From contig CDLV01000016.1 in NCBI GenBank assembly GCA_001244265.2, forward strand, positions 558,001 through 622,000: a DNA stretch of 64,000 nt, in the 5' to 3' direction. This document shows, in pieces, positions 57,035 to 57,359 of this stretch (position 1 is its first letter; each line of letters begins with the position of its first letter). The notes beneath the pieces were generated by a model. The model saw nothing but the letters and a program-made list of their open reading frames with translations. It did no database searches and was not told where the DNA came from. This DNA is from Microbotryum violaceum. Its lineage: Eukaryota. Made by a program: the position numbers and the translations under genes.

Positions 57035-57129
57035 TGTTGAACCTCCCTCCATCTCACTTCTAGGACAATATGCGCTCCCTGAACGAGAGGTGCCTCTCCT
57101 TTTGGTGCAGTGGTATATTGCTCCTAATA

Positions 57130-57160
<31 letters not shown>

Positions 57161-57359
57161 ATGGGTTCAAGCCCCCTGGGGTCAGGCAATTTTGCGCGCA
57201 CCCCGCACTTGCCTCCAAAGCCGCACCCACTGCCACAAGCTCTTCAGCTTCGCGCACAGGGGGTTGTTGAACCTCCCTCCATCTCACTTCTAGGACAATA
57301 TGCGCTCCCTGAACGAGAGGTGCCTCTCCTTTTGGTGCAGTGGTATATTGCTCCTAATA
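57035..57359 (+). mobile_element. TRIM (325 bp): identical 95-bp LTRs 57035-57129 and 57265-57359, PBS, PPT, TSD CCAAT
   Basis: TGTTGA...CTAATA twice; GGTTATGAGCCC... directly after LTR1; AGGGGGT before LTR2; CCAAT at 57030-57034 and 57360-57364; absent from the paralog at ~39757. Confidence 0.95.

Follow-up and report, generated by a model that had tools for sequence, protein, structure and literature searches.

The 64,000-nucleotide stretch of Microbotryum violaceum DNA analyzed here (assembly GCA_001244265.2, contig CDLV01000016.1, positions 558,001 to 622,000 of the forward strand; hereafter the window) carries, at positions 57035-57359, a 325-bp non-coding element in which two 95-nt long terminal repeats (LTRs) enclose a 135-nt internal part, too short to encode gag or pol. 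This is the organization of a terminal-repeat retrotransposon in miniature (TRIM): short direct terminal repeats, a short internal region and a total length well below 1 kb, with a primer-binding site (PBS) directly 3' of the 5' LTR and a polypurine tract (PPT) directly 5' of the 3' LTR. TRIMs are short and easily missed, and they are able to reshape genes. An earlier note on this DNA had described the element as a very young TRIM whose tRNA-like RNA polymerase III (Pol III) promoter is split around its PBS. That the element is a TRIM insertion is almost certain. It probably represents an ordinary kind of TRIM, dependent on Copia and taking the 5' half of an initiator tRNA-Met (tRNA-iMet) as its primer; its resemblance to a Pol III B box would then follow from a hairpin formed with the PBS, the Pol III promoter being putative.

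The two LTRs are identical and bounded on both sides by the same CCAAT, in agreement with the identical repeats and perfect target-site duplication (TSD) claimed previously. Identity between the members of the pair runs past their ends by just 1 nt leftward and 0 nt rightward, and the LTRs begin and end with TG...TA. The opening 40 nt of the LTR are found at two places in the window, where 100 shuffles give an expectation of 0, and the repeat structure is more than chance. In one public run, position 57264, which belongs to the PPT-like stretch, is a G.

The element interrupts a family B Copia, whose pol frame it breaks just past the integrase SH3-like domain, i.e., in the linker between integrase and reverse transcriptase (RT). 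An inverted paralog of this host Copia reads through the insertion site with one CCAAT. Likewise, when the contigs of four public runs were placed on 56400-58000, all four runs gave a joint from 57028 to 57359 that skips 330 bp. The empty site in the paralog and in the four runs identifies the 325 bp plus one CCAAT as a true insertion. A 5-bp TSD (CGGGA) also borders a family A Copia solo LTR in the window. A tandem duplication of 230 bp arisen in place, with no mobile element involved, would account for two direct repeats spaced 230 bp apart, but it is contradicted by the perfect 5-bp TSD, by the PBS and PPT, by the absence of all 330 bp from the empty site and by an LTR copy in one run which is ~91% identical (8 differences over 93 nt) and whose upstream sequence is unlike that of the 57035 site. 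The empty-site evidence effectively refutes this explanation, and the probability that we leave to it is negligible.

The LTR pieces of the host Copia are identical at 282 of 282 and 151 of 152 positions, which amounts to 1 difference over 434 compared positions. The same two LTRs, near-identical in sequence, differ in the copy number of a ~72-bp tandem repeat (367 versus 506 bp). As the TRIM sits inside an already young host copy, it must be younger than its host, and the youth attributed to it by the earlier note is upheld; zero differences over 95-bp LTRs would, taken alone, be a loose age bound. Further TRIM contigs were found in three of the four runs, with two to three substitutions each and one extra C, which falls in the C run after 57171. 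These contigs depart from the present copy at 57084/57085 (in one run at 57078 too), and in one form 54 bp of the internal part are duplicated in tandem. Along with the diverged LTR copy and its different upstream sequence, they indicate that the family is present at other sites, in other strains or species. Contig word depth, which is not copy number, was 32, 105 and 33-92 for TRIM pieces and 124, 478 and 522 for empty-site contigs, and gives the weak impression that the family is not high-copy. One run presumed to be RNA gave contigs of the empty-site Copia and left most of the TRIM uncovered, which counts neither for nor against expression of the TRIM.

Table 1. Coordinates, in the window, of the TRIM, its sequence features and the Copia elements around it.
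Feature	Position	Strand	Basis
Target-site duplication, left copy, CCAAT	57030-57034	+	Direct read and repeat comparison; single CCAAT in the paralog and in run contigs
5' LTR, 95 bp, TGTTG...AATA	57035-57129	+	100% identical to 57265-57359
Internal part, 135 nt; begins GGTTATGAGCCC, ends CACAGGGGG(T)	57130-57264	+	
PBS, 31 nt	57130-57160	+	Reverse complement of initiator-type tRNA-Met positions 10-40
PPT-like CACAGGGGG(T), adjoining the 3' LTR	57256-57264	+	Direct read
3' LTR, 95 bp	57265-57359	+	100% identical to the 5' LTR
Target-site duplication, right copy, CCAAT	57360-57364	+	Direct read and repeat comparison
LTR hairpin, long and imperfect, LTR positions 27-92; apex GAGAG-GUGC-CUCUC (57085-57098), then C and UUUU	57061-57126	+	Fold
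TTTT in the 5' LTR, overlapping the first T of the A-box-like motif; recurs in the 3' LTR at 57330-57333	57100-57103	+	Direct read
A-box-like TGGTGCAGTGG, within the 3' arm of the LTR hairpin	57103-57113	+	Direct read, motif scan, fold
PBS hairpin: GGUU.UGAGCCCA (57130-57142) with UGGGUUCAAGCC (57162-57173); inner stem GAGC/GCUC (57145-48/57157-60)	57130-57173	+	Fold
B-box-like GGTTCAAGCCC, coincident with the 3' arm of the PBS hairpin	57164-57174	+	Sole GGTTCRANNCC match in the window
TTTT, first T 16 nt past the end of the B-box-like motif	57190-57193	+	Direct read
Host Copia, family B; LTRs 54353-54719 and 59862-60367	54353-60367	+	Repeat comparison and domain search
Empty site, inverted paralog of the host Copia	about 39756-39761	-	Paralog comparison
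Family B Copia, LTRs TGTGAG...ATCACA	host 54353-60367; inverted paralog about 37158-43006		
Family A Copia copies	45721-46037; 48850-49232 (-); 50956-51340; 63063-63444		Repeat comparison
Family A solo LTR, TSD CGGGA, inside the TRIM host element	59325-59707		

The PBS is complementary to an initiator-type tRNA-Met from position 40 back to position 10, that is, to its D arm and anticodon stem-loop (anticodon CAT), which makes it much longer than assumed before. In the tRNA so complemented, the anticodon loop CTCATAA is carried by a GGG/CCC stem and the D arm reads GAGC-AGCTGGTA-GCTC. The first 23 nt of the PBS were retrieved at at least 120 metagenome loci, with a tRNA-Met(CAT) gene on the opposite strand at 37 of the 40 loci checked. 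The occurrence of this 23-mer within tRNA-Met(CAT) genes confirms that the PBS is tRNA-derived. ARAGORN, run over the 120 listed loci, returned 45 tRNA-Met genes, all of them bacterial-type initiator in look; neither eukaryotic LTR loci nor the host organism's own tRNA gene was found among the at least 120 loci listed. A comparison of the U5/PBS junction with viral contigs gave 0 matches. Many run contigs, from other elements, match 57130-57160 alone and diverge at 57155-57161, a boundary which would fit a reverse transcriptase copying its primer to about position 10.

The same extended PBS, partly mutated, is found at 8 other LTR junctions in the window, belonging to at least three other LTR families, and in its 31-nt form it is common to Copia families A and B and to one more element. 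The earlier proposal that the TRIM shares its PBS with the neighbouring Copias therefore stands. In the autonomous Copias, the PBS cores are mutated to GGTTATAAGCCC, GGTTATTAGCCC, GGTTATTTGCC and GGTTATTCGCC (43730, 46035, 54720 and 63445 on the plus strand; 40209, 42705 and 61803 on the minus strand), and the intact GGTTATGAGCCC is kept by the TRIM and by the element at 37030. The full 31-nt PBS with one core change (GGTTATAAGCCC) is also present at 40209 on the minus strand.

These features suggest that a Copia-type element performed, in trans, the reverse transcription and integration of the TRIM, in the way autonomous LTR elements are presumed to mobilize TRIMs (Kojima, 2024; PMC10886601). 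Priming would have been ensured by the 5' half of an initiator-type tRNA-Met, as in the surrounding Copias, and the DNA product would have been inserted into a young Copia copy, within its integrase-RT linker, leaving a 5-bp duplication. Both the PBS and the TSD length of the TRIM fit every local Copia family. The earlier note had gone further and viewed the element as a parasite of the neighbouring Copia, whose TG...TA ends it was said to share. Such ends are indeed found in family A LTRs, but the immediate host belongs to family B, the LTRs of which end with TG...CA. Moreover, the TRIM LTR has no significant similarity to those of family A, family B or the element at 37030 (best p about 0.06, contributed by the common CCTCTCCT alone), so that a specific parasite-host pairing is not established.

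The PBS is also engaged in a 16-bp hairpin. Positions 57130-57175 fold as one dominant structure (-22.1 kcal/mol, ensemble frequency 0.76, z-score -4.65) which 0 of 200 shuffles match. With the PBS kept constant, equally good folds are obtained for just 0.10% of shuffled tails and 0.14% of the natural 15-mers of the window (p about 0.001), and the best duplex between PBS and leader reaches -16.8 kcal/mol in the TRIM versus -6.9 to -10.7 at the 8 other PBS sites. The inner stem of the hairpin, GAGC/GCUC, is the reverse complement of the tRNA D stem. As for the 3' arm, with which the B-box-like motif coincides, it reads as a diverged sense copy of the primer anticodon arm (GGGCTCATAACC becoming GGGTTCA-AGCC). 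It starts exactly in the register expected from fold-back synthesis on the GAGC/GCTC stem; 10 of 13 aligned positions agree with this expectation, with one gap, and both substitutions are transitions which preserve wobble (G.U) pairing. A plausible scenario is that DNA synthesis once folded back on this stem, generating a sense copy of the anticodon arm of the primer. The hairpin, and not Pol III, would then account for the presence of the B-box-like sequence, and the tRNA-gene look of the element would come mostly from primer-related sequence and RNA structure. The exact register favours the hairpin over a B box.

A second hairpin, long and imperfect, is formed within the LTR (-26.4 kcal/mol, z-score -2.72, 3 of 200 shuffles as good), and the fold of 57061-57129 has a z-score of -3.54, with 1 of 200 shuffles as good. 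It was also considered that the U5 tail, which contains the A-box-like motif, might be a sense mimic of the primer D arm able to pair with the distal PBS. This candidate was rejected (p 0.084 and fold z-score -0.22 for the TRIM; p 0.05-0.36 for the other LTR families). Similarly, a downstream, Tf1-like "self-primer" reading of the mimic was set aside because cleavage past the mimic would part the PBS from the remainder of the template.

The A-box-like and B-box-like motifs invoked by the earlier note do exist, at the positions it gave (Table 1), and a direct read equally confirmed the complementarity it had seen between TGCCT (57091-57095) and AGGCA (57184-57188), followed by ATTTT (57189-57193). 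The B-box-like motif begins 35 nt past the LTR end. On the two strands of the 64-kb window, GGTTCRANNCC has a single match, inside the TRIM, and TRGYNNARNGG has 15; both consensus strings agree only in part with the wording of Kojima (2024; PMC10886601), i.e., "TRGCY ... YGG" for box A and "GGTTC" for box B. Under this published wording the B box fits, and the A box (TGGTG...TGG) is off at two of the five TRGCY positions. One ordered pair of boxes 30-95 nt apart was observed, against a mean of 0.015 per window in Markov-1 simulations; 3 of 200 simulations held at least one such pair, and none did when a TTTT was required within 40 nt. It is thus confirmed, at the motif level, that the boxes are more than chance and that their pairing is rare.

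Beyond the motifs, the likeness to a tRNA fades. No tRNA was detected in the TRIM by ARAGORN at its default threshold or by an Rfam search at E<=10, and the element accordingly lacks the cloverleaf by which tRNA detectors recognize a tRNA gene or pseudogene at default settings. With the ARAGORN threshold lowered to 80% and introns allowed, a "tRNA-Ile(aat)" is modeled at 57094-57187, with a 14-nt intron (57131-57144) which is the PBS core. This relaxed model agrees with the earlier remark that the PBS sits where an anticodon arm would be, since it treats the PBS core as an anticodon-loop intron; its acceptor stem has two mismatches and two G.U pairs. The detection of a tRNA once the PBS is removed, which had been suggested as a check, gave a divided answer. 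At the default threshold, ARAGORN called 6 of 647 computed deletion variants, all with 14 nt of the PBS core removed, and 0 of 200 full dinucleotide shuffles. Calls were nevertheless obtained for 18 of 200 shuffles in which just the A box and the T arm were kept, meaning that nothing beyond the two boxes is convincingly tRNA-like. Folded as one unit, 57085-57195 is not significant (z-score -1.31), and the T-arm/acceptor region alone has no unusual structure (z-score +0.17). On these grounds the TRIM appears weakly tRNA-like.

Several known systems offer points of comparison. Cassandra, a plant TRIM reported to be transcribed, has a 5S-derived Pol III promoter which lies wholly inside its LTR. 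The Microbotryum element would share with it the idea of a Pol III-driven TRIM with very short terminal redundancy, the terminal duplication of Cassandra being 18 bp (introduction of Kojima, 2024, PMC10886601), and it differs in that the promoter of Cassandra is of the 5S type, entirely within the LTR, borne by a plant element and known from reported transcription. With the TRIMs treated in the same paper, the element has in common a pair of short LTRs flanked internally by a PBS on the 5' side and by a PPT on the 3' side, a 5-bp TSD and the lack of coding capacity; it stands apart by its very short LTR (95 bp) and by a PBS which complements the 5' half of a tRNA and not its 3' end.

The tRNA-like TRIMs that the earlier note had mentioned under the name Helenus are indeed published: Helenus/TRIMp3 (TRIMp3 standing for a TRIM with a Pol III promoter) designates TRIMs with tRNA-derived sequence in their LTRs, the fungal families of which come from Pucciniales and a few Agaricomycetes, and section 3.2 of that survey states that none was found in Microbotryum (Kojima, 2024, PMC10886601). 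In the literature searched, no description of a TRIM was found for Microbotryum, and TRIMp3 was not encountered as a transposon term outside Kojima (2024). According to the sections and supplementary data used here, fungal Helenus and the present element share a basidiomycete host, a PBS for the anticodon loop (mostly that of tRNA-iMet in fungal Helenus), a 5-bp TSD, a presumed dependence on Copia, A- and B-box-like motifs with a T run, a size within the published range (325 bp for 311-1263 bp) and, for several fungal Helenus, the LTR termini TGTTG...AATA (DataS1, PMC10886601). They differ in the feature that defines Helenus. There, the whole tRNA-derived unit, with both boxes, is inside the LTR; in the Microbotryum TRIM, which tRNA detectors do not call at default settings, the A box is in the LTR and the B box lies past the PBS.

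Among the internal portions of fungal Helenus, GGGTTCA motifs, such as that of the PBS hairpin, were seen in 6 of the 23 that have an iMet-anticodon PBS and in none of the 24 with another PBS type, a count made by eye on parts 1-2 of DataS1 of Kojima (2024) and liable to change. The six elements already carry a complete tRNA-like unit, hence a full promoter, in their LTRs, and the internal portion of their lineage matches the first 198 bp of that of Copia-9_PGr (PMC10886601, sections used here). In Helenus related to LTR-1_PTrit, the internal portions contain T-arm-like GGGT(T)CAA(T)(T)CCCCAC units, in tandem arrays of up to about six, which are able to pair with the PBS core TGAGCCC of the same element; the parts of PMC10886601 drawn on here contain no discussion of these units.

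A hairpin directly 3' of the 5' LTR is known from other fungal Copias as well. In the parts of Donnart et al. (2017; PMC5445492) considered here, the GalEa Copias are described with a "Conserved Hairpin Site" directly after the 5' LTR, in which the opening 9-13 nt pair with their inverse complement, located at least a dozen nt further on. The TRIM hairpin has the same location and build, and likewise one conserved or persistent unpaired A. It is nevertheless distinct from this site, which comes without a recognizable PBS and with the CHSeq1 CTGATCAGT or CTAATTAGT, in contrast to the tRNA-complementary PBS forming the 5' arm in the TRIM; GalEa hosts are Pezizomycotina (PMC5445492), and that of the TRIM belongs to Basidiomycota. 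Lastly, half-tRNA priming is known from Ty5 and Drosophila copia (as cited in Kojima, 2024, PMC10886601). Both use a PBS complementary to the anticodon stem-loop of the initiator tRNA-Met, as does the TRIM, in which complementarity continues through the D arm to position 10 (31 nt).

The split promoter of the earlier note can now be weighed against the PBS hairpin. The element would be a variant of TRIMp3 driven by Pol III, with TFIIIC bound to the U5 A box and the leader B box; as these are paired at the 5' LTR alone, only this LTR would fire. Transcription would start at about 57083-57093, pass the weak T4 runs and stop at the 3' LTR T4, with an R region of roughly 7-20 nt. The order and spacing of the boxes and TTTT, which are those of a tRNA gene and rare in simulations, speak for this model, as do the relaxed ARAGORN cloverleaf with its few default-threshold deletion variants and the Basidiomycota Helenus with the same PBS type, TSD length and LTR termini. 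The boxes show no difference among the copies of three runs, these copies being nearly identical overall, though. A very short R appears workable in view of the terminal duplication of Cassandra, and the LTR hairpin followed by UUUU could act as a context-dependent terminator. Against it stand the silence of Rfam and of ARAGORN at default, the calls obtained on box-keeping shuffles, the imperfect A box and the position of the T runs. One TTTT lies about 10-20 nt past the predicted start and another 16 nt past the B box; in the simplest case, therefore, Pol III would yield an RNA of roughly 100 nt, unusable as a template for retrotransposition. In addition, the PBS hairpin explains the B box equally well or better. 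We consider this model unlikely, and the status of a split-promoter TRIMp3 would require that Pol III transcription be shown. Even less likely, in our estimation, is a working type-2 Pol III promoter assembled from pieces related to the primer tRNA, with an A box in U5, a B box exapted from the fold-back copy of the anticodon arm and, again, firing by the 5' LTR alone. In that case the transcript would start inside the 5' arm of the LTR hairpin, thus lacking the hairpin and reading through the TTTT of the 5' LTR, and it would be ended by the complete hairpin and TTTT of the 3' LTR, which would leave roughly 7-20 nt for R, a length similar to the 18 bp of Cassandra. It also appears improbable that what the element holds is left over from a tRNA gene, or from a tRNA-like module of the Helenus type, rearranged around the LTR/PBS junction and now without function. 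A tRNA gene and its terminator show the same succession of A box, B box, 7-nt "acceptor" strand and TTTT, and fungal Helenus have the same LTR termini and PBS type; yet there is no tRNA homology by Rfam, the acceptor stem of the ARAGORN model is poor, no simple rearrangement puts a PBS within a tRNA-like unit and, in the section of Kojima (2024; PMC10886601) cited above, Helenus was not found in Microbotryum. Slightly more doubtful still is the view that both motifs and both hairpins arose by chance in a small, GC-rich element and have no meaning. The motifs were noticed post hoc and several partial tests were not significant (the D-arm mimic, the 57085-57195 fold, the fold-back sequence match and LTR similarity), but chance has to face the low expectation for the motif pair, the low p value of the PBS hairpin and an LTR hairpin equalled by 1-3 of 200 shuffles.

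The hairpin account, on which the favoured reading of an ordinary Copia-dependent TRIM relies, faces difficulties of its own. The A/B pair at tRNA-gene spacing, with its downstream TTTT, is rare by chance, and the A box is weakly explained, being left as a roughly one-in-a-hundred coincidence; its interpretation as part of a D-arm mimic did not reach significance. On sequence alone, agreement with the fold-back expectation is modest (p 0.015 at that position). The PBS hairpin is absent from the window's autonomous Copias, though their PBS cores are mutated, and the six Helenus with GGGTTCA look like one lineage and not like independent cases. Furthermore, the TRIM PBS can pair fairly well with any T arm whose stem is GGG/CCC. 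The initiator anticodon arm (GGGCTCATAACCC) and T arm (GGGTTCRANNCCC) are little different, such that the hairpin and the B box predict each other and are not cleanly separable. Finally, TFIIIC could still bind to the B box, whatever its origin.

These readings would have different consequences. If the hairpin explanation is correct, Pol III boxes can be mimicked by sequence derived from a primer tRNA, a point of importance for the annotation of tRNAs and short interspersed nuclear elements (SINEs), and the "conserved hairpin site" that other fungal Copias carry, itself unexplained, would be tied to priming by tRNA halves. A genuine split promoter would enlarge the small class of Pol III-driven LTR elements, and by straddling the LTR/PBS junction it would be specific to the 5' LTR. 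A primer-derived promoter, if real, would represent a novel architecture of Pol III LTR retroelement and a route to a promoter without SINE capture.

The surroundings of the TRIM are rich in retroelements, the 36000-64000 part of the window being a dense nest of Copia elements. Family A Copias have LTRs of about 385 bp (TGTGAC...CTCATA), at the 3' ends of which a 69-bp tandem duplication places the U5 end twice in a row (51217-51350, 59585-59718 and 63322-63455). A further Copia RT open reading frame (ORF) is present at 25584-26558 on the minus strand. A Ty3/Gypsy chromovirus pol occupies 9230-12934, as two adjoining stop-to-stop ORFs (9230-11221 and 11222-12934) with protease, RVT_1, RNase H, integrase zinc, Tf2-type SH3 and chromodomain regions. 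Among the cellular genes, an ORF for an Rtf2 RING-finger protein (3046-4302) is 100% identical, over the aligned 70%, to a Microbotryum lychnidis-dioicae protein, the next matches being from other Microbotryomycetes, and a gene for a PRP21-like splicing factor lies at 5835-7064.

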